Assembly: GCA_043819495.1 (NCBI GenBank)
Contig: JBDRET010000024.1
Span: forward strand, 7,177-71,176
DNA from: Candidatus Woesearchaeota archaeon
GTDB lineage: Archaea > Nanobdellota > Nanobdellia > Woesearchaeales > UBA11576
Reading direction: 5' to 3'
Length of the DNA stretch: 64,000 bases
The position numbers and the translations under genes are program-made. How positions within the stretch are numbered: the first letter of the stretch is position 1; each line of letters starts with the position of its first letter. Positions 8,675-56,339 of the stretch are shown here, piece after piece. The notes under the pieces were generated by a model. It saw nothing but the letters and a program-made list of their open reading frames with translations. It did no database searches and was not told the origin of the DNA.

Positions 8675-10309
8675 TCACTGCCGTACCATTCCCTTTACAT
8701 TATATACTTGAATAGGATTAGATTTTCCTTTCACTCTTATCGGTTCAAGCTCTTCACACTTGACGAGCTTCTTGACTTCTGCATGCGTGGTCGCGGTAAT
8801 GAGGATCTCATCTGCTTTTGCAGCTCCGCAAAGACGTGCGGCGACATTGACGCTGTTTCCTATGACTGTGTAATCCATGCGCTGCCTTGCGCCGACATTA
8901 CCTACGATCATCTCACCAGTATTGATGCCTATTCCGATATTTATGTCGATGCCATACTTCTTCTTGAACTTCTTGGATAATATCTTCTGTGCTGCCTGCA
9001 TCTCGACGGCAGTCTTCACTGCCTTGAGCGCATGCGCTTCGGTGCGGACTGGAGCGCCGAATATCGCCATTATCTCGTCACCTACAAACTTGTCTAGTGT
9101 CCCGTTGTTCTGGTGTATTATCTGCAACATCGTCTCGAAGTGCTCGTTGAGTATCTCTATTGTGTGTTCTGGTGCGAGCTGCTCTGACCATGCTGTGAAG
9201 TCACGCAGGTCTGAGAACAGTACGCTCATCTCACGTTTCTCTGTCCTGAGATAATTCTCTTCAGGGTTTGCAAGTATCTGCTTCATTACTTCAGGACTGA
9301 CGTAGCTCTGGAAGGCAGTCTTTATCTCGGTCTTTGCAAGATCCTCAAATACTGCTGAGTCTGCCTGCTTTGCGATAGCATTGAGAAGATTCTTGTCTAT
9401 CTTCGTGAACCCGTCAGATGAGCTTGAGTTTATCACTCCGAAGACACCCATAGTATCATCATTGAGCATGAATGGTGTACAGATAGCTGAGTCTATATCC
9501 TTGTTGACATTCTTGAACTCTGTAAGCTCTCCCTTGTTCAGTGTCGTACGTGCAGTATCATATAATGCATTTGAATTGTTATGGACAAATGTGGATGACT
9601 TGAGCTTGCCTGCGGTCTTGAGCTCCGTGGTGTTCATCTTCCTATTATTTATCATGAAGAATGCGAGCTTTGCATCTATGACATCAGTTATCTCCTGCAA
9701 TATCGCTTCCATCATCGTGTCAAAGTCTTTTATCGTGTCTCTGATCCGGTCTATGGCGTATATCGTCGAGAGCTCTTTGTCCTTCTCACTCAGTTCCCTG
9801 CGGCTCTTTGCGTGCTCGACAGCTACAGCAGTAAATTTACATATCATCCTGAAAAGTATGAGGTCCTTCTTCTTGAACAGTCTGCGGCTCTTGTTCATTA
9901 TCATGAAGACGCCGATCGGTTCTGATCCGTACATCAATGGCAATGCCATCACATTCTGTATCCTGCATCGTCTCATGCGCTTGTGCATACGGGTGTCATT
10001 CACTATTATCTGCTTCCCTGTCTTGACCAGGTTGTCACATATATCCCTGACCAATGCCTGATCCTCAAGCTGTTCGGAAGTGTTGGTCGCACCATACTCG
10101 AATGGGTTCATGTTGTCTTTGTTGTATAAGATTATGAATCCCAATTCTACTCCAATTGTCTTGACTGTCAGAAGAAGTATCTCCTTAAGGAGCTGGTAGA
10201 ATTCCTTTGTATTGGTCTCTATGGTCACCAATTCGCTCAATATGTATGAACGGGTATTCTGGGACCTGATCTTAGCTGCCAGTCTTTTGATCTTATCAGA
10301 GGATTTCAT
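8675..10309 (-). CDS. Class III adenylate/guanylate cyclase with two N-terminal GAF-like domains
   Basis: Cyclase homology domain motifs are present: 'VLFSDLRDFT', 'KFVGDEIMAIFGAP', 'INTGEMIVGNVG' and 'DYTVIGNSVNVAARL'. The N-terminal ~350 aa looks like tandem GAF sensor domains. Confidence 0.7.
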   Translation of the reverse strand: MKSSDKIKRLAAKIRSQNTRSYILSELVTIETNTKEFYQLLKEILLLTVKTIGVELGFIILYNKDNMNPFEYGATNTSEQLEDQALVRDICDNLVKTGKQIIVNDTRMHKRMRRCRIQNVMALPLMYGSEPIGVFMIMNKSRRLFKKKDLILFRMICKFTAVAVEHAKSRRELSEKDKELSTIYAIDRIRDTIKDFDTMMEAILQEITDVIDAKLAFFMINNRKMNTTELKTAGKLKSSTFVHNNSNALYDTARTTLNKGELTEFKNVNKDIDSAICTPFMLNDDTMGVFGVINSSSSDGFTKIDKNLLNAIAKQADSAVFEDLAKTEIKTAFQSYVSPEVMKQILANPEENYLRTEKREMSVLFSDLRDFTAWSEQLAPEHTIEILNEHFETMLQIIHQNNGTLDKFVGDEIMAIFGAPVRTEAHALKAVKTAVEMQAAQKILSKKFKKKYGIDINIGIGINTGEMIVGNVGARQRMDYTVIGNSVNVAARLCGAAKADEILITATTHAEVKKLVKCEELEPIRVKGKSNPIQVYNVKGMVRQ

Positions 10310-24034: not shown

Positions 24035-25801
24035 GTGCGATACAAGGGGTGTGACAGTTTGACAGAAGATATAGTGAACGATATTCTAGATTCAGAGGGA
24101 AATCTCAAACCGGGATTCAGTGGTATAGGTAAGCTAAGAGGCAAGACAGATTATACAAAAGATGAGGAGACAGTACTAAAGCATTTCTTCACCAATACGC
24201 ACTCAAATGTGTACTGCGCTACAGATAACATGCCAGGAGAGCTATGGGCATTGATAATGGGCCAGTATGCACGGAGCAGCATGACCGGAAGAGATAGGCT
24301 GCTCAAGCTGTTCACTGACATGGAAGAGAAAGGTGAAGCGATATCAGTATCCGAGCTAGCAGAGATGATACGATCTGGACGCGATGTCGCAGGAGCACTT
24401 CAAGCATACCTCAATAAAGCAGGGAATTTCATCGAGATATATGGTGTGAAGTACGGCCATGCATCACTACGAGATTCAGGTGTAATCAGAATATGTTTCG
24501 AAGGGGTGAGCCAGAGAGCCACCAAGTTCCTTGAGAGCGCCAGAGAGGGGGCATATCAGGAACAGTCTACCCGTGCCATCCCTTATGAGATGGAGAATCT
24601 TGGCGTCCCATATGAGATCCGTGACACCAAGTATGAGATCATCATACATGAGCTGGATGAGAAGCTCATCGAACTATACAATAAGATATACAATAAGCTG
24701 ATAGTATACCTGCCTAGTAAGTTTGCTCATCTCAGGGCCAAGGCCGATGAGAAGCTGGCTTCTGAGCTTGGCCGTGATGACGTGACGATAACTGACAGGG
24801 AGTGGAGCAGTATCATAGCTGCAAAGGCATTCGATGTCGCGAGATACCTGCTGCCTCAGAACATGACAACATCTTTAGGCATCACATTGAACACCCGAAG
24901 GTTCCAGGACAAGCTCACTGAATGGCAGTCCTCAGACATCATGGAGATGCAGGTGCTTGGAAAGGTGGCTCAGGTCGAGTCCATGAAGATAAGCCCTACG
25001 CTCATGAAGTACGGCAACAAGAGCCCGTATCATGTGAAGATACCTTCTGCACTTAAGGCGCTCAATAAGAAATTTGTAGTCAACAACAAGGCCTGTGCAG
25101 CTTTCCCTTACACACATTATGATGTCAGCTCAAAGATGATATCTGCCCCTGACGACCTGCAGGAACTGGTCCTTGCAAGCATACTGCTCAATGGTTCAGA
25201 TGGCAGTGTGAGCATGGATGAATTCAAGCAGATTGTAGGGAACATGTCATTTGATGAGAAACGTGAGGTCGCTGAGAGCGTAGCGTCAGATAAACCGTCT
25301 CATGACATATTCTCCAAGACGATGGAATGCGGATCAGTCATCTTTGAGAGAGTCTATGATATAGGTGCATTCAGGGACCTTCAGAGACAGAGAGGGGATA
25401 GGCAGCAATTCAACAGATATTCAGTCATAGGTTACAACATGCCTAAAGAGGTCGCAGAGATCGGTTTAAAGGCTGAGTTTGTCACTCTTATGAATGAAGT
25501 CAAGAATGTATATGATATGATGTGTGAAGAGGGTATCGCTGCGGCAGAGTATGTGCCTGTGATGGCAAATGTCCTGCGACACGTCGTCACAAAAGATCCT
25601 GTCCAGTGTTTCTATGAGGCGAAACTTAGAGCGCAGCCTGCAGGCATCGATTCTTACAGATCAATAGCTCAGCAGGAGATAACCCAACTTCTTGATGTGA
25701 TGCCTGTCTTCAAAGGTCTGGTACCCTACGATGCAGAATATTATAATCTTGGCAGGCTCGAAGAGACAGTCAATGGCAAGCTGAGGAAGCATAAGAAATA
25801 A
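24035..25801 (+). CDS. ThyX-like (flavin-dependent thymidylate synthase family) protein, tandem duplication of the ThyX domain with non-canonical RHR motifs
   Basis: First domain: 'GHASLRDSGVIRICFEG...FLESAREGAYQEQSTRA' aligns to ThyX 'GHETPFEHIVFTFHV...WFRHRIASYNELSGRY', and 'ARYLLPQNMTTSLGITLNTRRFQDKL' matches ThyX 'ARxvLPxNxxTxxxxTxNxRxLxxFL'. Second domain: 'AFRDLQRQRGDRQQFNRYS' and 'YVPVMANVLRHVVTKDPVQCFYEAKLR'. Confidence 0.45.
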   Translation: MRYKGCDSLTEDIVNDILDSEGNLKPGFSGIGKLRGKTDYTKDEETVLKHFFTNTHSNVYCATDNMPGELWALIMGQYARSSMTGRDRLLKLFTDMEEKGEAISVSELAEMIRSGRDVAGALQAYLNKAGNFIEIYGVKYGHASLRDSGVIRICFEGVSQRATKFLESAREGAYQEQSTRAIPYEMENLGVPYEIRDTKYEIIIHELDEKLIELYNKIYNKLIVYLPSKFAHLRAKADEKLASELGRDDVTITDREWSSIIAAKAFDVARYLLPQNMTTSLGITLNTRRFQDKLTEWQSSDIMEMQVLGKVAQVESMKISPTLMKYGNKSPYHVKIPSALKALNKKFVVNNKACAAFPYTHYDVSSKMISAPDDLQELVLASILLNGSDGSVSMDEFKQIVGNMSFDEKREVAESVASDKPSHDIFSKTMECGSVIFERVYDIGAFRDLQRQRGDRQQFNRYSVIGYNMPKEVAEIGLKAEFVTLMNEVKNVYDMMCEEGIAAAEYVPVMANVLRHVVTKDPVQCFYEAKLRAQPAGIDSYRSIAQQEITQLLDVMPVFKGLVPYDAEYYNLGRLEETVNGKLRKHKK

Positions 25802-45156: not shown

Positions 45157-47046
45157 TTATCTTTTTACGGCAAGATCATTGATGTCCTTCTTCTTGGAAG
45201 GTTCTGAAGCTGTAAGACTTGCTTTAGCCTTGTCCCTGAGCTTTATGTTCCCGAAGTGTATGCTGTTGAAATGTGTGAATGAAAGCCTGCGTAATGCGTT
45301 CTGCATGATGATGAGAAGTACGAAGATCCCTATAGCATATGCCATAAGCATAGATAATCCATGAAGCAGGACATCAAATCCTGAGTTGAATATTATCGCC
45401 TGTTTCAATGCATTCTCGCTGATCACGAATGGATTGAGCAAAGCCAGGCTCTTCAGGTATCCTGGAAGGCTCTCAAGTGGGATGACTACTCTTGAGAATA
45501 GCATGAATACTGAAATGAGGGTTATCGCTGCAAGGTTGGATGTCTCTTCAGTCTTGAAGATGAACCCCACAAACATCCCTATGCAGATGAATACTGTGGC
45601 AGTCAACAGGACTATCAGCAGAATCATGAGTATCGATGCCAATACCTGTGTCTCAAAGAACACTGCACTCACGCTCACGAACAGCAAGAGCTGTATGAAC
45701 AGGACAGTGAGTGAAGTCAGGTAGGTGGATATGTTGAACGTGAAATATGATGTCGGCGTGAAATTGTTCCTGAAAAAAGATCTTGATTTCTTCTCTACCA
45801 TGACTAAAGTGGTGGACAGGAGTATCCCTGTTATCATCATTATCAACACAATAAGTGTCGGGAAAAGTGAATTGAAATGTGTCTTCTGGGTCGCAAGGGG
45901 TTCTATCTTGGTGGTTATCGGTGTCGATATCCCTTCTGCACTTTTGCCTTTCACTGCTTTTATCTTCTGCAGAGCCTCATCAAGCGTCCCCTGCAGTGAG
46001 GTCATGCTGGTCACCATACTGTCTATCTCTGTAGATGTCTGGTCGAACTGTGGGAGCAGCTCATCCCTCTTCTGTTTGATCGTGGTTATCTTTGACTGTG
46101 TCTCTGAAATCTTCTGACCTATCGCATCAAGAGAGGATCTTATCGTCACCAGTCGTGAAGAAGCATTATCTGCATCAGAGCGTATCAATGCAATAGCATC
46201 ATCGATCGTATCCTGTATCTCATCAGTATCTTGGTCTATATCATCAAGCTCATCCAAGACTCCAGACTCATTCGTCAGAGATTGTGCAGATGCGGCAGAA
46301 TTCTCGATGCTATCGATCACATCGTTGATGCTGTCTGAGAGGTTAGCTGCCTGGCTCCTTATTGCAGCAAGGTCCGTCTCTAATCTATCTGATATCCCCT
46401 TATCATTCTGGATATCAATATTGTTGAAATCTACTGATATGTCAAGCTCTTTGATGCCTGCCTGCGTAGAGCTGCTCTTTGTCTTTAACCCATCGCTCTT
46501 TGTCCGCATCTCTCCCAAGGTCTTCTGGCCATAGCTGATCCTTTCCTCTACAAACCACATCCTTTCAAGAAGGTCTGCGGTCATCTCCTTGGACAGTTCC
46601 GAAGACCGTTCAGATATGCGGGCAGACATGACATCCAGCATGAGCCATACAAGGTTTATCTGTGAATAATCGACATAGAACGTAAGCTCATTGCTCTGTC
46701 CGGTATTAATGTCCATACCTGCAGGGAACAATACGCACGCCTGTGATTCTCCAGTCTTCACTGCACTTATGCAATCATCCTCTGAATCCAGGCGCAGTAT
46801 GTCGAAGTTCTGGTTCGTCATCTTAGTTATCAATGATTCTGAAAGTTCAGTGTATCCTTCTGAGTATATCGATGCTGTGAGAGAAAATCCGCTCGATTGG
46901 CTGAACGCAAGACCGAGTAGAGTCACGAGCAGGAGCGGACCTATGAATATGACAAGTGAAGATATCTTAGCCCTTACCAGGAGCTTGAAATTCTTCTTCA
47001 ACATCTCTAATAGTCCTTTCATATCACATACCTTCTTATCCATCAC
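45157..47046 (-). CDS. ABC-2/YhgE-type transporter permease with a large extracytoplasmic coiled-coil domain
   Basis: N-terminal TM, then a ~350-aa helical domain, then five C-terminal TM helices. Overlaps the upstream ABC ATPase gene. Confidence 0.6.
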   Translation of the reverse strand: MMDKKVCDMKGLLEMLKKNFKLLVRAKISSLVIFIGPLLLVTLLGLAFSQSSGFSLTASIYSEGYTELSESLITKMTNQNFDILRLDSEDDCISAVKTGESQACVLFPAGMDINTGQSNELTFYVDYSQINLVWLMLDVMSARISERSSELSKEMTADLLERMWFVEERISYGQKTLGEMRTKSDGLKTKSSSTQAGIKELDISVDFNNIDIQNDKGISDRLETDLAAIRSQAANLSDSINDVIDSIENSAASAQSLTNESGVLDELDDIDQDTDEIQDTIDDAIALIRSDADNASSRLVTIRSSLDAIGQKISETQSKITTIKQKRDELLPQFDQTSTEIDSMVTSMTSLQGTLDEALQKIKAVKGKSAEGISTPITTKIEPLATQKTHFNSLFPTLIVLIMMITGILLSTTLVMVEKKSRSFFRNNFTPTSYFTFNISTYLTSLTVLFIQLLLFVSVSAVFFETQVLASILMILLIVLLTATVFICIGMFVGFIFKTEETSNLAAITLISVFMLFSRVVIPLESLPGYLKSLALLNPFVISENALKQAIIFNSGFDVLLHGLSMLMAYAIGIFVLLIIMQNALRRLSFTHFNSIHFGNIKLRDKAKASLTASEPSKKKDINDLAVKR

Positions 47047-48142
47047 TCTTCTTTGTCAATCTCTCAAATATCTCAGTCAGTGTAGAGTCAGATACATCCA
47101 GGCTGACCAGCCTCTCCTTACACGACTCTACTGCTTTTATCACGCGTCGTATTGTCAGGTCATCGCCTGATACAAAAACAATAAGCTCATTGTCCTGTTC
47201 AGATGTCCTTTCTACTCCCTTCACTTTCTTCAGCTTCTTTCTGAGCGCATCATACCTGTTATCATCAAACATAACCTTGACGATACGACCTTTCTTGAAC
47301 ATATCCTTGAGCTCTTTTAATGTACCATGGCCCAGGATTTTCCTATCATGCAGTATCGCGACTTTAGTACATAGCTGCTCGACCTCATCCAGTATGTGCG
47401 AGGCTATGACAATGGTCGTACCCTGTGAATTTATCTGTTTGATCAGACGCCATATCTGTTTGCGCATGACAGGATCAAGGTCAGATGTCGGTTCGTCAAG
47501 GAACAGCATCTTAGGTTCATGTATGAGAGAGCATGCGATATCCAGGCGTCTCTGCATACCTCCTGAAAGCTCTGCAGCTATGCTGTCCCTGTCTTCAGTC
47601 AGGTCAACAAGACGCAGGAGCTTTTCCATGTTCTCCATTATCCTCTTCTTCTTCAGGCCATATAAAGAGCCATAGAACATGAGGTTCTCTTCGACAGTCA
47701 AGTGATCGTAGAAAGAAGGTATCTGTGAAGCGAAGCCGAAATTCTGCTTGACACGTGATTGATTCCTTAATACAGAGACATAATCAGGTGAGTCACTCTT
47801 ATTATCGAAAAGAAGATCATTCCTGACAAGGACATCACCTGATTGTGGGTTGAGTATGCCCGACATAAGCTGGAATATCGTCGTCTTTCCAGAACCGCTC
47901 ATACCGATGATGCCAAATATATCTTTATGGAAGATGTCAAAGTCCACATCTTTGAGCACAAGCTTGTCCTTGTAGCTCTTTGAGACCTTTCTTAGCATCA
48001 GGACTGGCTGGTTACTTGGAGATATTGCTTTCTTGAGACTCTCAGATATCGGTTTAATCTCTTCAGCCTTATCTTTATTTTCTTTAGAATTATCTTTAGA
48101 CTTAGAACTACCTGCCTTTTCACCCTCTTTTTTCCAAAACAT
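47036..48142 (-). CDS. ABC transporter ATP-binding protein
   Basis: 'GIIGMSGSGKTT', 'LSGGMQRRLDIA', 'LFLDEPTSDLD'. The track ORF extends to 48565 as an antisense read-through of SRP54 and is trimmed to MFWKKEG. Confidence 0.75.
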   Translation of the reverse strand: MFWKKEGEKAGSSKSKDNSKENKDKAEEIKPISESLKKAISPSNQPVLMLRKVSKSYKDKLVLKDVDFDIFHKDIFGIIGMSGSGKTTIFQLMSGILNPQSGDVLVRNDLLFDNKSDSPDYVSVLRNQSRVKQNFGFASQIPSFYDHLTVEENLMFYGSLYGLKKKRIMENMEKLLRLVDLTEDRDSIAAELSGGMQRRLDIACSLIHEPKMLFLDEPTSDLDPVMRKQIWRLIKQINSQGTTIVIASHILDEVEQLCTKVAILHDRKILGHGTLKELKDMFKKGRIVKVMFDDNRYDALRKKLKKVKGVERTSEQDNELIVFVSGDDLTIRRVIKAVESCKERLVSLDVSDSTLTEIFERLTKKSDG

Positions 48143-48224
48143 TTTGTTTAAAAATGCTGATTGGAGTTTATAAAGTTTTTGGTGATTTTGCTGCTCTTTC
48201 TTTGGAAATCCGTCTTCGAAAACC

Positions 48225-48232
48225 TTTATAAA
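48225..48232 (+). promoter_or_regulatory. TATA-box-like 'tttataaa' ~23 nt upstream of the SRP54 start (leaderless-type promoter)
   Basis: The same 'tttataaa(c)' octamer sits 20-70 nt upstream of other starts: ~17031 (metallophosphoesterase), ~31276 (kinase), ~56409 (mscS), ~60968 (eIF5A). 'ttttatata' at 58936 precedes aRF1. Confidence 0.35.
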
Positions 48233-48254
48233 CATTATACCATTCGTAGATACT

Positions 48255-51200
48255 ATGGTACTTGAGAAACTTGGAACTTCACTCAGAGACACACTCCACA
48301 AGATAAGTAAAGCAGTCTTTGTAGATGAAAAACTGGTCAATGAGCTGGTCAAGGATATCCAGCGGGCCCTTCTCCAGTCAGATGTCAATGTCAAGATGGT
48401 ATTTGAGCTCTCCAAGAAGATAAAGGAGAGGCTGATGAATGATGATGCACCTCCAGGCCTGACAAAGAAAGAATTCCTCATAAAGATAGTGTATGAAGAG
48501 CTTGTGAACTTCCTTGGGGCTGAAGCATCAACTATAGAGATAACGAAGAAACCAACTAAGATCATGATGGTAGGACTTTTTGGTCATGGAAAATGTGTAC
48601 ATAAGGACAGCAACATACTTCTTTTTGACGGTACAACTGTCGGGGTGCAGCAACTATACGACTCCTACAGGTGCAATGGGGAGGTCGACATAGAGGATGG
48701 ATGTATCATACCTCTTGATGCAGAGCTTTCTGTCCCTTCGATGAACACAAAAAGCCTGAAGATCGAGAAAAAGAGAGTGACTCATCTCTGGAAACTGAAA
48801 TCAAAAGACCTGATGGCTGTATCGCTCGATATGGGAAATGACTTCAACGTCAAGACCACCTGTGAGCACCCGTTCTTTGTACTGAAAGATGGCTTGGTGG
48901 AGCAAAGAAGGGCAGATGAATTAAGGAGAGGGGATTATGTAGCAATACCTGCGAAGGTCACTACAGAATCTGGCAGCATCAACTTTGAGGACTCTCTGAA
49001 GAGACTCAACCTCAACGTGAAGATATCTGATGATAAGACCTTAAGAACACTCAAGAAAAAGATAATAGCAGAACATGGAACACTGATGCGCGCAGCTTAC
49101 TCACTCCCCCATAAACGTAATTATGCTGTATTTACGAGTTCCTTAAAGAAAGGAGAGATCCCAATCCAGCTATGTGGCCTCGGAACATCTGATGCTGTGC
49201 ACTTAAAGCTGCAGAACTCCCAAGATTATATCGATTTTCCCACAAGATCAACACCTGAAATGGCAGAATTCTTGGGCTACATCATAGGCGATGGTCATCT
49301 TTCCCATAATAGTGTCAACATATCAAATAAGGACCCTGAAATAATCGAGAGACTGAAAACATTGTCGAAAGACCTCTTCGGCAGGGAGCTGAAGCTTACC
49401 CCCTGCAAAAGGTCCAAAGGATTGTATGATCTCAGGATAAACTCTAAGACCCTTGTCACGCTCATACATGGGCTGTTCGGCATACCGATAGGAAAGAAAG
49501 GGACTGGACTGGAAGTCCCTCAACTCGTACAACTGTCTTCGCAAGATGTAATCTCCAGATTCCTGAGGGCTTATTTCGATTGCGATGGGTATTTCTGCCG
49601 TACCCAAAGGCAGATTGAAGCAGTATCTGAAAGCAGAGTGCTGCTAAGACAGATACAGCATATGCTGCTAAGGTTCGGGATTGTCGCGAAGATGATCAAT
49701 AAGAGAACCGATGGGAAGGACTATTCCAGGCTAATGGTGCAGGCGAGGGATACTGTCATATTCGGTGAGAGGATAGGCGCATCAATCGCAAGGAAAAGGG
49801 AAGCGCTTGAGAACCATGTTATCATGACCATCAAGCAAGGTGATGGAAAGAAAGACATGATACCGGTCGGCAGCCTCCTGAGAGAATTAAGGGAAATGTC
49901 CGGTTTCTCTTTAAGCCAGATACAGGATGCTGTAAGTTCATATGGCCTGTACGAGAAGAAAGGCATGATATCCAGGACACAATTACGCAATGTCGTCTGT
50001 TTCTATGAGCGTGGCGAGAGCGGCAATTTCCGTAAGTTGATAGGCCTGGTGGAGAACTCGCAAAAAGACAAGCTCAGCGAACAGCTACGGATAAGCCAAC
50101 CATTGGTAAACGCGCTTGTGGGAGAGCTGAGGAACAGAAACATGATCGCAGAAGTCACGAACTCACCTACCAGACTTGTCCTTACAGAAAAAGGGAGTAA
50201 GTATTTTGATGGCATGAAACGATCCTCGGACAGACTGTTCGGGATCCTGAGAACCCTTGCGTATGCTGATGTCTGCTGGGCCAAAGTCAAAGACGTCTCT
50301 AAAGTCAAGAATGACCATCCATATGTGTATGATCTCACTGTCGAGGACAGCCATAACTTCATCGCTGATGGCATTGTGGTGCATAATACGACGACTGCCG
50401 CTAAGTTAGCTAAATACTACCAGAAACGTGGCAATAAATTGGCATTGATATCCACAGATACCTGGAGGCCGGCAGCATTTGAGCAATTGAGACAGTTAGG
50501 TGCGCAGATAAACGTCCCGGTATTCGGAAATCCTAAAGCAAAGAGTCCTGTAGCGATATACAAAGAATTCGAAGACAAGCTTGGCGAGTTTGATCTTGTC
50601 ATCATAGATACTGCAGGAAGGGATGCATTGTCTGATGAGCTCATCAGGGAACTGAATGATATCAATAATGCTGTGCAGGCAGATGAGAAACTTCTTGTCA
50701 TAGGCGGTGATGTCGGGCAGGCTGCGGAAAGGCAGGCACAGACATTCCACGATACCTGTAATGTGACTGGTGTGATAATAACAAAGCTTGAAGGTACAGC
50801 AAAAGGTGGCGGTGCACTGATAGCATGCTCCGTGACCGGCGCAAAAGTAAAGTTCATAGGAGTAGGAGAGAAGATTGATGACCTTGAAGTGTACTCTCCT
50901 GAAAGGTTCGTCGGAAAGATGCTTGGCATGGGCGATCTTGAAGGCCTCCTTGAGAAAGCACGTGAAGCGATAACAGAAGAAGATGCACAGGACCTCGGTA
51001 AGAAACTCCTGAAAGGTGATTTTAACCTCCTTGACCTTTATGAGCAGATGCAGGCGATGAAGAAGATGGGGCCTTTGGGCAAGGTGATGGACATGATACC
51101 TGGCTTTGGTCAGATCAAGCTGCCAAAGGATGCATTGAAAGTCCAAGAAGAGAAGATCAAGAAATGGAAATTCATACTCGACAGCTGCACCAAAGAGGAG

Positions 51201-51437
51201 CTGGAAGACCCTGACAGCAACATGAGCGCACAGCGCATCGACAGGATATCAAAAGGCTCAGGTGTCGGGCCTGGAGAGATACGCGAACTGCTTAAACAGT
51301 ACAAACAGAGCAAGAAGATGATGAAGTCACTGAAAGGACTGGGTGGAGGATCACCTGCGCAGATGGAAAAGATGATGAAGCGCATGGGTGGCGGGATGCC
51401 TGGGATGAAAGATGGAAAGAACATGATGTTCAAGTAA
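48255..51437 (+). CDS. srp54: Signal recognition particle protein SRP54 interrupted by an intein (extein ~462 aa)
   Basis: N domain, then P-loop 'GLFGHGK' + [intein] + 'TTTAAKLA', then 'DTAGR', 'TKLEGTAKGG' and the M domain 'GMGDLEGLLEK...MKKMGPLGKVMDMIPG'. Confidence 0.85.
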   Translation: MVLEKLGTSLRDTLHKISKAVFVDEKLVNELVKDIQRALLQSDVNVKMVFELSKKIKERLMNDDAPPGLTKKEFLIKIVYEELVNFLGAEASTIEITKKPTKIMMVGLFGHGKCVHKDSNILLFDGTTVGVQQLYDSYRCNGEVDIEDGCIIPLDAELSVPSMNTKSLKIEKKRVTHLWKLKSKDLMAVSLDMGNDFNVKTTCEHPFFVLKDGLVEQRRADELRRGDYVAIPAKVTTESGSINFEDSLKRLNLNVKISDDKTLRTLKKKIIAEHGTLMRAAYSLPHKRNYAVFTSSLKKGEIPIQLCGLGTSDAVHLKLQNSQDYIDFPTRSTPEMAEFLGYIIGDGHLSHNSVNISNKDPEIIERLKTLSKDLFGRELKLTPCKRSKGLYDLRINSKTLVTLIHGLFGIPIGKKGTGLEVPQLVQLSSQDVISRFLRAYFDCDGYFCRTQRQIEAVSESRVLLRQIQHMLLRFGIVAKMINKRTDGKDYSRLMVQARDTVIFGERIGASIARKREALENHVIMTIKQGDGKKDMIPVGSLLRELREMSGFSLSQIQDAVSSYGLYEKKGMISRTQLRNVVCFYERGESGNFRKLIGLVENSQKDKLSEQLRISQPLVNALVGELRNRNMIAEVTNSPTRLVLTEKGSKYFDGMKRSSDRLFGILRTLAYADVCWAKVKDVSKVKNDHPYVYDLTVEDSHNFIADGIVVHNTTTAAKLAKYYQKRGNKLALISTDTWRPAAFEQLRQLGAQINVPVFGNPKAKSPVAIYKEFEDKLGEFDLVIIDTAGRDALSDELIRELNDINNAVQADEKLLVIGGDVGQAAERQAQTFHDTCNVTGVIITKLEGTAKGGGALIACSVTGAKVKFIGVGEKIDDLEVYSPERFVGKMLGMGDLEGLLEKAREAITEEDAQDLGKKLLKGDFNLLDLYEQMQAMKKMGPLGKVMDMIPGFGQIKLPKDALKVQEEKIKKWKFILDSCTKEELEDPDSNMSAQRIDRISKGSGVGPGEIRELLKQYKQSKKMMKSLKGLGGGSPAQMEKMMKRMGGGMPGMKDGKNMMFK
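48594..50387 (+). mobile_element. Intein (~598 aa) with a LAGLIDADG homing-endonuclease domain, inserted in the SRP54 P-loop
   Basis: Begins Cys ('K|CVHKDSNILLFDG'), ends 'VVHN|T'. Block B 'THLW'. LAGLIDADG motifs 'LGYIIGDGHL' and 'YFDCDGYF'. Confidence 0.8.
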
Positions 51438-51449
51438 TTATTTCCTAAG

Positions 51450-51944
51450 ATGGTCAAGATACGCAAAGCAAAAAGAGAAGACCTTCAAGGTGTATACAAC
51501 CTATTTCTTGAACTTTGTGACTCAGAAGATTCTTCTGAACTAAAAATCGCAAAACACCTCAAAAGCATGAGGAAGAGAAGACCTGACTTTGAGAAAAGCG
51601 CTAAACGAGCACTACTTAAGTCAATATCAGATAGAAAGGCACTTTATCTTGTCGCTGAGAATGAAGGTGAACTTCTCGGTTATGGTTATGGGACTGTCCT
51701 CTCTGCCAAAGACAGTTTCTTCATCTCTCAAAAGATAGGATGCCTCAATGCGTTGGTAGTCAGCAGAAAACATAGAGGTAAAGGTGTCGCTTCAGGATTG
51801 CATGCTGAACTTCTCGATTGGTTCAGAAAAAAAGGGTGTTCATCTGCATCTCTTGAGGTGTTTACCACTAATGCTGCGCAAGATATCTACAAGAAGTGGG
51901 GATATAGTTCTTTTACTTGTAAGATGAATAAGAAGTTGAAATAA
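51450..51944 (+). CDS. GNAT-family N-acetyltransferase
   Basis: 'LVVSRKHRGKGVASGL' acetyl-CoA binding motif. Confidence 0.65.
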   Translation: MVKIRKAKREDLQGVYNLFLELCDSEDSSELKIAKHLKSMRKRRPDFEKSAKRALLKSISDRKALYLVAENEGELLGYGYGTVLSAKDSFFISQKIGCLNALVVSRKHRGKGVASGLHAELLDWFRKKGCSSASLEVFTTNAAQDIYKKWGYSSFTCKMNKKLK

Positions 51945-52053
51945 TATCCTTTGAAAATGTTGATCTTTGTTGCCCGGAGCTTTTACCGTTGTTGTCGGAA
52001 TATCTCCCGTAAATGTTCACAGGACAGTATACATTAAGACGTGAAATATATAA

Positions 52054-52920
52054 ATGACTATCGCTTACATAAGGACTATGGCTGATGACTCTGGTACTTT
52101 AGCAGTCTTTCAAGGGAAACGCATACGAAAGACTTGGCAAGTTGACGAATGGTGGTTCGTGATAGAGGATATTATCGTTGCGTTGACTGATTCTCATGAC
52201 CCTAAACAGTATATCCAGAAGATGAAACAGAGGGATGAAGAGTTGGCTAAAGGGTGGGTACAGATTGTACGTACCCTTTCAATAAAAACCTCTGGGGGCT
52301 CTCAGAACATGAATTGTACCAATACTGAAGGCGCTTTCAGGATAATACAATCTATACCGTCCCAAAAAGCAGAGCCGTTCAAGCTTTGGCTTGCAAAGGT
52401 AGGTCATGAACGTGTACAGGAGATAGAAAATCCGGAAATCGCACAGAAACGCATGAAAGAGCTTTATAGGCAGAAAGGCTATTCTGACGATTGGATTGAG
52501 AAAAGAGTGCGTGGAATCGCCATAAGGGATGAGCTCACTGACCAATGGAGTACAAGAGGAGTCAAAGAAGAAAAGGAATACGCGATACTCACTGCGCAGA
52601 TATCGAAGGCAACATTCGGGATGACCCCGTCAGAGTATCAAAAGTTCAAAGGTCTGAAACGGCAAAACTTAAGGGATCACATGAACGATCTCGAACTCAT
52701 ATTCTCCATGCTTGGCGAAAGGGCGACAACAGAGATAGCAGTCACTAAGGATGCACAAGGATTCCTTCAAAATGAACAGGCAGCAAAGAAAGGTGGGACT
52801 ATCGCAGGTGATGCTCGAGAGAAACTAGAGGTTGAGACCGGAAAAAGAGTATCTACGCCTCTGAATTATCGTGATGAACCCGAAAACGTGAAGAAAATTG
52901 AAGCAAAGAAAAAAAGATGA
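52054..52920 (+). CDS. DinD-like (DNA-damage-inducible protein D family) with a Bro-N/KilA-N-like N-domain
   Basis: N-terminal 'FQGKRIRKTWQVDEWWFVIEDIIVAL' (Bro-N-like). The C-terminal 'KGLKRQNLRDHMNDLELIFSMLGERATTE' is recalled as similar to E. coli DinD 'KGLKKNQKILDHMGSTELAANLFRATQTE'. Confidence 0.45.
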   Translation: MTIAYIRTMADDSGTLAVFQGKRIRKTWQVDEWWFVIEDIIVALTDSHDPKQYIQKMKQRDEELAKGWVQIVRTLSIKTSGGSQNMNCTNTEGAFRIIQSIPSQKAEPFKLWLAKVGHERVQEIENPEIAQKRMKELYRQKGYSDDWIEKRVRGIAIRDELTDQWSTRGVKEEKEYAILTAQISKATFGMTPSEYQKFKGLKRQNLRDHMNDLELIFSMLGERATTEIAVTKDAQGFLQNEQAAKKGGTIAGDAREKLEVETGKRVSTPLNYRDEPENVKKIEAKKKR

Positions 52921-54114: not shown

Positions 54115-55182
54115 CTACTCAGTTTCAAGAATCTTAGGAAAATATACTGGAGGTCTAAGAATTCCTTTTTTCAGCAGATTCCTTACAAGAGTCAGGTCAT
54201 CTAGTCCGATTGCACCTGCGTACAATGTCTTGAAATCACCATCCTCTTCTGCGAACTTCCGTATCTTTACAAGACCTTGAAGATATATGTGATCCTTGAT
54301 GTAGCCCCCTCCCCTGAAAACCCTAAACGTCAGATCCCACGCCTGATCATCACTAAGACCTTCTGTTTTCATGATGTCAAATGTCTTTCGGAAATCCTTA
54401 CCTTTCATGACAGAGTCAACCGCCACTACACGGAGTGCGCAGTCCCTTAACCTTTCAGTGCTCAGAGTGCCTGTCTTTTCCTCCAGAAACGATGCGAGCC
54501 CTTCTTCTGTGTCCAAGTAGCCTGGAAGACCCAGGCCCATTATCTTCAAGGGTTGGGCGTATCCATTTGCACACCTGAACACATGCCCCAGGACTTCATG
54601 GATGCAAATCCTTGCGAGCTCAGCTTCACTCACGACGCGATCCCTACCGACACCAATCTTATTTTCAGCAGAATAAACTGTGGTAAGCCTCTTGTCAGAA
54701 AGTTCCACTTTCCACCCGATGAGCTTATTTTCCCTAAGAACAGTCTCAATCTTCTCTTTTATCCTTGATGCCGGAATTGTATTCTCCTGTTCAGCTGGGG
54801 GAGTCTCTTTTGATATTTTTAGAGAGTACTCCAGAAGATATTTAGAAGGATATCCATAAAGCTGCATTGTCAGCTCTTTTATTTTTTCGCTTCTCCCAAT
54901 ATTCATCACTATTGTATTCGCAGTCAGAAGTTCTGTTCTTTTTCTCTCAAATATGTCCTTGAGATCACACTCCGGAATCGTGATATCCTGCAGCAGGTCA
55001 TTGATTGCAGATGGATCGTACCCAATCTTGCGGTATTGGAACTCTGGCGCTTCAATTTCTCCTCTCAGAAACCTGCTTTTTTGTTGTGCTCCATTGAGGG
55101 GAGTACAATAAAGCAACGGTTTTATCTGCTCAGAGCATCCTTTCAAGATGTCTGTAATCCTGTTGAGGTGGTCTATGTTCAT
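54115..55182 (-). CDS. DUF1704-family putative zinc metallopeptidase, paralog 2
   Basis: 'HEVLGH' and 'TEEGLASF'. Paralog of 38613-39695. The start is trimmed to MNIDHL. Confidence 0.5.
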   Translation of the reverse strand: MNIDHLNRITDILKGCSEQIKPLLYCTPLNGAQQKSRFLRGEIEAPEFQYRKIGYDPSAINDLLQDITIPECDLKDIFERKRTELLTANTIVMNIGRSEKIKELTMQLYGYPSKYLLEYSLKISKETPPAEQENTIPASRIKEKIETVLRENKLIGWKVELSDKRLTTVYSAENKIGVGRDRVVSEAELARICIHEVLGHVFRCANGYAQPLKIMGLGLPGYLDTEEGLASFLEEKTGTLSTERLRDCALRVVAVDSVMKGKDFRKTFDIMKTEGLSDDQAWDLTFRVFRGGGYIKDHIYLQGLVKIRKFAEEDGDFKTLYAGAIGLDDLTLVRNLLKKGILRPPVYFPKILETE

Positions 55183-55184
55183 TT

Positions 55185-56339
55185 TCACTTCAGGAATATC
55201 TGTACAACATCCCCGTCCTGGAGGACATGATTCAGCATGAGCCGCTGACCTGGGAACTTCGCGCTCTTGCCCCATACTTTTGAGAAGCGGAACTTTGTCA
55301 CGAAATCTTTATGTAGTTTTGAACACATATCTCGTATGGTGTTCCCGTTCCGCATTATGAGCGGTTCTTCAAGATCTGCTTTCTTCCCTCCTTCCTTGCA
55401 GTAGATGCGTATGAAATTGAGTTTCTGGAATATGGCGTCCTTCAGCTCTTCGATATTGATCTTTTCTTCAGCAGATATGCATATGTCCGGATTTATCTCT
55501 GCCTTTATCTCTGCTAGGCGTTGCTCATCGATAAGGTCTATCTTGTTCAGGACAATGAGGCCTGGGATGTAGACCCTGTTTCCTTCAAGTACATCGATCA
55601 GGTCATCGACGCCGATCTCTGAACGTATCAGTATCTCCGCATTGTTGATTCGCATCTCTTTACATATTGCCTTGATGGTTTCATCTGAAAGCGTGTCGAG
55701 CTTCACAGTCTTACCTACCCTGATACCATCTTTTGATTTCTTCGTTATCTTGACATCAGGTTTTCGTATATTTAACCTGAGGTGAGCATCACGTACCTCT
55801 TTGAGTATCACCTTGTATGCGTTCGGCCGCAGGGCATCCACCAGTATGATGCCAAGATCAGCGTTCTGCATGACTGATAGGACTTCTCTTCCTCTTCCTC
55901 TGCCTGATGCTGCTCCGTATACGATACCAGGGACATCAAGGATCTGGATCTTTGCCTGTTTGTATTCCAGAAGTCCTGGAACGACTGAAAGAGTGGTGAA
56001 CTCATATGCGCCTACGGGGGAGTCTGCATTCGTGATTATGTTAAGGAGACTTGATTTGCCTGCAGATGGGAACCCGACAAGTATGACTGTAGCATCACCG
56101 CTCTTTCTCACAGAATATCCTGAAGTTGCAGGACCTTTCCTTTGGCGGAGCTCATCTTTCTTCTTAAGTTCAGCTATCTTCGCACGTACCAGCCCATAAT
56201 GATGCTGGGTCCGTTTATTGTACTGCATCTTACTGAGTTCAGCTTCCATTTCCTGGATACGATCCCAGTTAGATGCTTTCTTCTTGTTAGACTCAGGTTT
56301 CTCTTTCGTGCTTACCTGCTTAGTTTTCTTTTCAGCCAT
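55185..56339 (-). CDS. DRG/Obg-family GTPase with a C-terminal TGS domain
   Basis: G1 'GFPSAGKSS', G3 'DVPG', 'NKID', and a C-terminal TGS-like 'GDVVQIFLK'. Confidence 0.75.
   Translation of the reverse strand: MAEKKTKQVSTKEKPESNKKKASNWDRIQEMEAELSKMQYNKRTQHHYGLVRAKIAELKKKDELRQRKGPATSGYSVRKSGDATVILVGFPSAGKSSLLNIITNADSPVGAYEFTTLSVVPGLLEYKQAKIQILDVPGIVYGAASGRGRGREVLSVMQNADLGIILVDALRPNAYKVILKEVRDAHLRLNIRKPDVKITKKSKDGIRVGKTVKLDTLSDETIKAICKEMRINNAEILIRSEIGVDDLIDVLEGNRVYIPGLIVLNKIDLIDEQRLAEIKAEINPDICISAEEKINIEELKDAIFQKLNFIRIYCKEGGKKADLEEPLIMRNGNTIRDMCSKLHKDFVTKFRFSKVWGKSAKFPGQRLMLNHVLQDGDVVQIFLK

Follow-up and report, generated by a model that had tools for sequence, protein, structure and literature searches.

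An apparently intact LAGLIDADG intein in the SRP54 P-loop of a Woesearchaeota archaeon

The Walker A motif, or P-loop, is a recognised hot spot for intein insertion, with MCM-a, DnaB-b, RFC-a, RecA/RadA and VirB11 among the alleles at this site (Novikova et al. 2016, PMC4760082). Transfers of inteins from one P-loop to another have been described in a eukaryote in work on Anaeramoeba, and for the fungus Rhizophagus it has been proposed that an intein passed between the signal recognition particle (SRP) receptor and IF-2P (PMC10710043). The element analysed here interrupts the srp54 gene in a 64,000-nt stretch of DNA, called the window throughout, from a Candidatus Woesearchaeota archaeon (assembly GCA_043819495.1, contig JBDRET010000024.1, positions 7,177 to 71,176 of the forward strand). 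It is read as a class-1 (Cys1/Thr+1) intein inserted in the SRP54 P-loop, with a LAGLIDADG homing endonuclease of the monomeric, double-motif type, a reading to which we give a probability of about 0.9.

Two groups of described inteins come closest to this element. The best-scoring intein-containing model is that of aIF-2 (NF011418 / PRK14845), which matches the insertion over its whole length (intein aa 1-598; 150 bits, E 6e-44); when the complete precursor is aligned, aa 103-719 fall on profile positions 13-482, with flanking P-loop residues included. Like the aIF2/aIF5B P-loop intein, the SRP54 element is a class-1 LAGLIDADG intein located between GK and T of a translation-type GTPase P-loop (HGK/TT; here and below a slash marks the insertion point). 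The host, however, is SRP54 rather than aIF5B, and the SRP54 intein, at 598 aa, has extra modules relative to the IF-2 intein, which spans about 450 positions of the profile. The resemblance to aIF-2 exists at the level of profiles, and IF-2 proteins were not among the single-sequence matches at E <= 1e-5. The closest solved structures are the V-ATPase subunit A inteins of Thermococcus litoralis and Pyrococcus horikoshii (7qss, 7qsu, 7qst), which share the Hint-plus-LAGLIDADG architecture and also reside in an archaeal NTPase. The T. litoralis intein (TliVMA) is found both by sequence (phmmer against the PDB, E 2.5e-25, aa 213-386 on 146-315) and by fold (Foldseek E 2.7e-25, TMt 0.84), but the V-ATPase inteins are no longer than 432 aa and overall identity is only 16-19%. 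More distant matches include MCM, RFC, DnaB, EF-2 and V-ATPase inteins.

What sets the locus apart from the P-loop inteins of the survey is the function of its host, which works in protein targeting and not in replication or repair. SRP54 and FtsY are both absent from the survey's main text and its Tables 1-3 (PMC4760082), and a search of open-access full text, which did not extend to InBase and so leaves an earlier listing elsewhere possible, returned no description of an intein in archaeal SRP54 or FtsY. The element is an ordinary kind of mobile element whose host protein, site and allele were not found described before.

An insertion at the P-loop of SRP54

The 3183-nt reading frame of the precursor is open throughout. 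Its translation reaches MMVGLFGHGK and continues with a Cys at aa 114 (nt 48594); the insertion ends with FIADGIVVHN at aa 711 (nt 50387), after which the host sequence resumes as TTTAAKLAKYY. The interrupted motif is the Walker A/P-loop sequence GxxxxGK/T, split between GK and T. An initial annotation of this DNA, made from the letters alone, had proposed a 598-aa insertion at 48594-50387 that begins with Cys, ends with His-Asn before Thr and divides the SRP54 P-loop as GLFGHGK/TTT, and had called P-loops classic intein sites. The translation gives exactly these coordinates, termini and GK/T junction, and the Walker A site is, as noted above, a recognised hot spot (PMC4760082).

That the host is SRP54 is evident from the flanks, in which PF02881 (SRP54_N, 55.6 bits), PF00448 (SRP54 GTPase, 196 bits) and PF02978 (SRP_SPB, 98.8 bits) all pass their Pfam cut-offs. 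Removing the insertion in silico leaves a 462-aa protein with one uninterrupted match to Ffh (aa 4-426 on profile positions 2-427/428), and the intein-less site reads ATGATGGTAGGACTTTTTGGTCATGGAAAA/ACGACGACTGCCGCTAAGTTAGCTAAATAC; 60 bp of it were reconstructed. The spliced protein scores below the NCBIfam equivalog cut-offs (TIGR00959 Ffh, 415 bits against 473.2; TIGR01425 SRP54_euk, 403.7 bits against 576.25), but these models describe the bacterial and eukaryotic equivalogs, and with an alignment over the full length the low scores do not speak against SRP54 of the archaeal type. The spliced extein is 84-87% identical to proteins named Srp54 by NCBI and JGI. The precursor is 100% identical to P0001, an NCBI protein from a Candidatus Woesearchaeota metagenome-assembled genome (MAG). 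No second srp54 was found within the 64-kb window.

The insertion itself is recognised as an intein far beyond chance, since three models exceed their cut-offs: Pfam Intein_splicing (E 1.8e-29, 103 bits against 35.8), TIGR01445 for the intein N-terminal region (39.1 bits against 24.5) and TIGR01443 for the C-terminal region (37.5 bits against 15.6). Conservation was counted over the 81 homologous inteins that could be delimited. The junctions take the form GxxxxGK/C...HN/T in every one of them, and the +1 residue is always Thr. The nucleophile Cys1 (nt 48594-48596) and H3 of block A, D580 and H587 of block F, and H597 and N598 of block G are each present in 81/81 inteins, as is H92 of block B; T89 of block B is present in 80/81. 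The initial annotation had allowed that block analysis might reveal a degenerate insertion lacking essential splicing residues; the residues of blocks A, B, F and G are intact here and near-invariant in the homologues. Judged by its sequence, the SRP54 intein is apparently intact.

Table 1. Features of the interrupted srp54 gene (positions are those of the 64,000-nt window, forward strand; intein residues are counted from Cys1)
Feature	Position	Strand	Basis or remark
SRP54 precursor open reading frame, 1060 aa plus stop	48255..51437	+	SRP54 and intein Pfam domains
N-extein, aa 1-113: N domain and first half of P-loop, ends GLFGHGK	48255..48593	+	
Intein, 598 aa, Cys1 to His597-Asn598	48594..50387	+	Translation, intein models, break relative to L001 DNA
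N-terminal Hint subdomain, intein aa 1-122, blocks A (C1) and B	48594..48959	+	TIGR01445 aa 1-96; beta-rich model
Block B, T89-C-E-H92 (TxxH)	48858-48869	+	Conserved residues
Accessory helical/linker module between N-terminal Hint and endonuclease, intein aa 123-212	48960..49229	+	Secondary structure of model
LAGLIDADG homing endonuclease domain, intein aa 213-395	49230..49778	+	LAGLIDADG_3 twice; aligns to TliVMA 146-315
Motif 1, LGYIIGDGHL, intein aa 227-236	49272-49301	+	Catalytic acid D233
Motif 2, YFDCDGYF, intein aa 327-334	49572-49595	+	Catalytic acid D331
Accessory helix-turn-helix plus winged-helix module (predicted), intein aa 396-558	49779..50267	+	Sub-model; weak MarR-family fold matches
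C-terminal Hint subdomain, intein aa 559-598, block F (D580, H587) and block G (H597-N598)	50268..50387	+	TIGR01443 aa 577-598
C-extein, opens with +1 Thr (TTTAAKLAKYY), then remaining G domain and M domain	50388..51437	+	

Endonuclease and accessory modules

An AlphaFold2 model of the intein, built with 77 sequences, is of very high confidence (pLDDT 94.7, pTM 0.93) and predicts a Hint fold for the insertion. When it was compared with the PDB by Foldseek, the top matches were archaeal endonuclease-bearing inteins (TliVMA 7qss, PI-PkoII 2cw7 and PI-PfuI 1dq3), followed lower down by PI-SceI, by mini-inteins (RadA, CDC21, TFIIB; rmsd 2.1-2.6 Å) and by the free enzyme I-DmoI. The two LAGLIDADG motifs claimed by the initial annotation are both present and lie in two stretches matched by Pfam LAGLIDADG_3 (E 1.8e-23). 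In the model, the secondary-structure pattern over aa 221-395 fits the alpha-beta-beta-alpha-beta-beta-alpha pseudo-dimeric fold, and Foldseek aligns I-DmoI (TMt about 0.7) and I-Tsp061I to it (TMt 0.65-0.74 overall). The catalytic residues are strongly conserved: D233 and K302 occur in 81/81 inteins and D331 in 79/81. Mean pairwise identity is 48% in the endonuclease domain and 52-60% in the Hint parts, and by this measure the endonuclease is about as conserved as the splicing domain.

The initial annotation also called the element unusually long and guessed that the excess might be an additional DNA-binding or other inserted domain. At 598 aa it does exceed the inteins of known structure (432-537 aa), but it is not extreme and is typical within its own family, in which lengths range from 531 to 603 aa with a median of 590 aa across about 90 clusters; mini-intein derivatives (about 150-200 aa) were not seen among those clusters. 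According to the model, the extra length consists of two accessory modules, and relative to the 432-aa TliVMA the endonuclease is preceded by about 70 additional residues and followed by about 95. The first module, the helical module at aa 123-212, adds length beyond the single domain that had been guessed; TliVMA has only about 20 aa in its place, and it is the least conserved segment of the intein (31% mean pairwise identity). One natural variant (P0075) has an intein without aa 149-201, within the helical module, and another (P0005) one without aa 482-547, within the second module. Since each module is cleanly deleted in one of these variants, both fit the description of modular, dispensable add-ons.

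The second module, aa 396-558, is the one that would answer to the guessed DNA-binding domain, and it is predicted to contain a helix-turn-helix (HTH) and a winged helix. Modelled separately (pLDDT 88.5), it finds as its best PDB matches exclusively winged-helix repressors of the MarR family, with weak scores (Foldseek E about 5e-3, TM about 0.4). Pfam gives a faint TrmB match at intein aa 487-528, and homologues of the module match the HTH_45 and MarR_2 models. Its position is suggestive as well. PI-PkoII and PI-PfuI, which rank second and fourth in the fold search, are archaeal inteins with accessory DNA-binding subdomains, and in inteins of this type an extra subdomain between the endonuclease and the C-terminal Hint part (the Stirrup of PI-PfuI) contributes to DNA binding; the 396-558 module occupies the same position. 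An exhaustive search of 1.84 billion representative proteins with a profile of the module matched 22 proteins, most of them SRP54 inteins or fragments of such inteins, the exceptions being three short proteins (unscanned or without a Pfam match) and one FG-GAP protein. The module appears to be lineage-restricted. The FG-GAP repeat protein (P0246) was rejected as a homologue, its match being a spurious one to a GDGKxD-like repeat.

Distribution, mobility and competing explanations

Comparison with intein-free relatives, which the initial annotation had recommended, shows how precisely the element is inserted. The 120 best matches to the spliced extein are all intein-free SRP54 proteins of 446-498 aa, and the closest of them, at the 84-87% identity given above, come from MAGs of Woesearchaeota or Nanoarchaeota. 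The exteins of intein-bearing homologues, by comparison, are never more than 68% identical to the extein in the window. One intein-free relative is syntenic: the contig that encodes P0112 (GCA_018830225.1; L001/L002) retains the upstream order of threonyl-tRNA synthetase (ThrRS), hypothetical gene, ABC-2 permease, ABC ATPase and SRP54. BLASTN aligns window positions 46525-48592 with L001 3333-5338 and window positions 50385-51444 with L001 5337-6402, that is, up to both intein junctions, and the intein is the only disruption inside srp54 relative to L001.

Searches with the intein recovered P0001 and about 90 further clusters (at 90% identity) with the same architecture and 32-56% identity. 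In a GTDB scan that covered one genome per species and used a single accessory-domain pattern, at least 33 species carried the allele; all are represented by MAGs, assigned to Woese-, Pace-, Nano- or Aenigmatarchaeota, to Thermoplasmatales or to Thermoplasmatota. By these matches the allele is found in DPANN archaea and Thermoplasmata. The initial annotation's remark that the site is not commonly reported holds for the literature, in which no report was found, but not for the databases, in which clusters and species of this number mean that the site is not rare. The public names of P0001-P0091 are mostly 'LAGLIDADG family homing endonuclease', 'hypothetical protein' or 'signal recognition particle receptor subunit alpha', a systematic mis-annotation of SRP54 that is caused by the intein.

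Two kinds of evidence argue that the family is mobile, namely its presence in FtsY paralogues and the existence of nearly identical host genes with very different inteins. Two Thermoplasmata SRP54 precursors (P0041 and P0072) have exteins that are about 99% identical and inteins that are 56% identical, and the divergence begins and ends at the splice junctions; on these alignments the pair represents replacement of one intein allele by another in near-identical host genes. Two proteins from Woesearchaeota-type MAGs (P0021 and P0061) are FtsY, with TIGR00064 scores of 275 and 259 bits (cut-off 260.7) and without an M domain, and their P-loop is interrupted at the equivalent position by an intein of this same family. 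The FtsY exteins are about 25% identical to SRP54, whereas the FtsY inteins are 52-56% identical to those of one SRP54-intein subclade, and in a bootstrapped neighbor-joining tree both fall with that subclade (96/100 in a bipartition test). These relationships imply transfer between paralogues. The P0021 locus (L016) reads FGINGSGK/TTSIAKLA around the intein, and the DNA of the FtsY site, encoding GK/TTSIAKLA, resembles the SRP54 sites of the same subclade; this shared coding sequence makes ectopic homing from SRP54 to FtsY a plausible route. A viral vector was not identified, phage records giving only distant matches to the endonuclease domain (<=33% identity, <=45% coverage).

In the mechanism that we infer from the anatomy of the element, the conservation of its catalytic residues, its fold, its precise presence/absence polymorphism and its signatures of mobility, the 1060-aa precursor would be made with a split P-loop and would be unable to bind GTP. 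The Hint domain would then excise the intein by the four steps of the standard class-1 pathway, beginning with an N-S acyl shift at Cys1, going on to transesterification to Thr+1 and cyclisation of Asn598, and ending with an O-N shift. GLFGHGK-TTT would thereby be rejoined, leaving SRP54 in its normal form of 462 aa and releasing the endonuclease of 598 aa. The endonuclease would cut intein-free srp54 genes at the P-loop-coding DNA, and repair would copy the intein into the break (homing). The Stirrup module of PI-PfuI and the DRR module of PI-SceI extend the contact with DNA, and the accessory modules at 123-212 and 396-558 most likely widen the DNA contact surface here as well. Indirect support for site-specific cleavage of the intein-less allele comes from the sporadic distribution of the intein, the replacement of one allele by another and the jump to a paralogue, and the best-supported account is that of a selfish but harmless element.

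Several results weigh against this account. The intein and extein match in GC content (0.458 and 0.462) and in GC at third codon positions (GC3, 0.528 and 0.509), and no foreign signature of the intein was found in either measure, which suggests that the element has long resided in a genome similar to the present one and was not freshly imported. The nearest sampled intein is only 56% identical to the one in the window; its presence here may reflect a recent invasion or repeated loss in sister lineages. Across the family, the pairwise identities of inteins and exteins are correlated (r = 0.71), which indicates that transmission is largely vertical or within lineages. The winged-helix assignment depends on the weak Foldseek scores given above, and the endonuclease of this copy could be inactive despite its intact motifs. 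The last point leads to the alternative of a splicing-competent intein whose endonuclease no longer acts, an immobile vertical passenger late in the homing cycle that persists because imprecise deletion would destroy the essential P-loop. This is an unlikely but serious alternative: the host-like composition, the 56% distance to the nearest sampled intein, the broad co-divergence of intein and extein, and the natural variants that have lost parts of the accessory modules (P0005 and P0075) are all in its favor. Against it, both LAGLIDADG acids and K302 are intact here and nearly invariant in the family, the endonuclease is conserved to a degree similar to that of the Hint parts, and the mini-inteins expected of such decay are absent from the roughly 90 clusters. 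The possibility that the insertion is a degenerate, non-splicing one, or an artefact of assembly or binning, with the interrupted gene a pseudogene, has a negligible chance of being correct. The source is a MAG, and P0001, the copy at NCBI, is partial and lies on a contig of 12.6 kb, but the frame is open with all splicing residues in place, about 90 protein clusters, recovered independently by many assemblers from many samples, show the same architecture, the boundaries are exact with respect to the intein-free syntenic locus, and the window has no other srp54.

Two further readings assign the element a more particular role. In one, the intein has been domesticated, and splicing that depends on, for example, redox state at Cys1, temperature or substrate would control how much active SRP54, and in some lineages FtsY, is available; co-translational membrane targeting would be tuned in this way in these small-genome archaea, and the endonuclease with its winged helix might serve as a DNA-binding factor instead of a homing enzyme. 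The persistence of the allele over several DPANN phyla and Thermoplasmata, together with the co-divergence of intein and extein, would suit such a role, as would the conservation of the MarR-like accessory module and the location in a nucleotide-binding loop, which means that unspliced precursor must be inactive. It has also been argued that P-loop inteins may be kept by selection (Novikova et al. 2016, PMC4760082). We nevertheless regard regulation as improbable: the intein is dispensable, since the closest relatives of the host are all free of it, the catalytic residues of the endonuclease are conserved as a homing enzyme would require, allele replacement between 99%-identical exteins and transfer into FtsY bear the marks of selfish mobility, and the sequence showed no feature that is specific to conditional splicing. 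The other reading, also doubtful though somewhat less so, is that of an undescribed intein family specialised on the P-loop of SRP-type GTPases, moving between SRP54 and FtsY by way of the GK/TT(T/S)IAKLA sequence and equipped with its own HTH/winged-helix module. In its strongest version, splicing may be a checkpoint that controls how much active SRP GTPase is available to DPANN archaea and Thermoplasmata.

Taken as a selfish intein in the SRP54 P-loop, the element adds a host protein outside the usual set of invaded genes in replication, repair and nucleotide metabolism, and the fact that Walker A is again the site strengthens the view of P-loops as general landing pads for inteins. The family also offers natural examples of syntenic presence and absence, of replacement in 99%-identical hosts and of ectopic transfer from SRP54 to FtsY; ectopic transfer between paralogues has so far been formally described mainly in eukaryotes (PMC10710043). 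On the practical side, analyses of DPANN genomes that rely on marker genes or estimate completeness can be skewed when copies of the essential SRP54 gene are mislabelled. The endonuclease, together with its private winged-helix module, could offer a new rare-cutting specificity, and the Hint domain could provide a splicing tool of mesophilic archaeal origin.

Genomic surroundings

The genes around srp54 are ordinary DPANN chromosomal genes, encoding ThrRS, an ABC transporter, a GNAT protein, PCMT, SHMT, a CCA-adding enzyme and an M50 protease. The slot directly 3' of srp54 (window 51450-52920; L001 6432-8288) differs between the syntenic relatives. In the window it holds genes for a GNAT acetyltransferase and a Bro-N domain protein; in L001 it holds an EFTU_D2 fragment, a free-standing LAGLIDADG_2 endonuclease gene and a LigD_N gene, and synteny returns at PCMT. 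On the 5' side, a listed 509-aa open reading frame (ORF) for the ABC ATPase (47036-48565, minus strand) overlaps the start of srp54. Since its homologues are 354-372 aa long, its true start is probably near 48150, which would leave a divergent, low-GC (0.35) intergenic region of roughly 100 bp before srp54. Minus-strand ORFs of 89-123 aa inside the intein were taken to be frame shadows of the long plus-strand ORF and set aside.

No other inteins were found in the 64-kb window, where long ORFs (a T2SSE ATPase of 776 aa, a ThyX-like protein of 588 aa, ThrRS and others) are without intein domains, and neither tRNA genes (ARAGORN) nor Rfam families at gathering score were detected in window positions 1-64000. 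The ThyX-like ORF (24035-25801, plus strand) is, at 588 aa, roughly double the usual size of ThyX and matches two Thy1 stretches but neither an intein nor any other domain, as a tandem or fused ThyX might. Elsewhere in the window, 8675-10309 (minus strand) encodes a protein with a GAF domain plus a class III adenylate/guanylate cyclase, and 54115-55275 (minus strand) encodes a MATCAP/DUF1704-like metallopeptidase, both of them kinds of protein that are uncommon in archaea.

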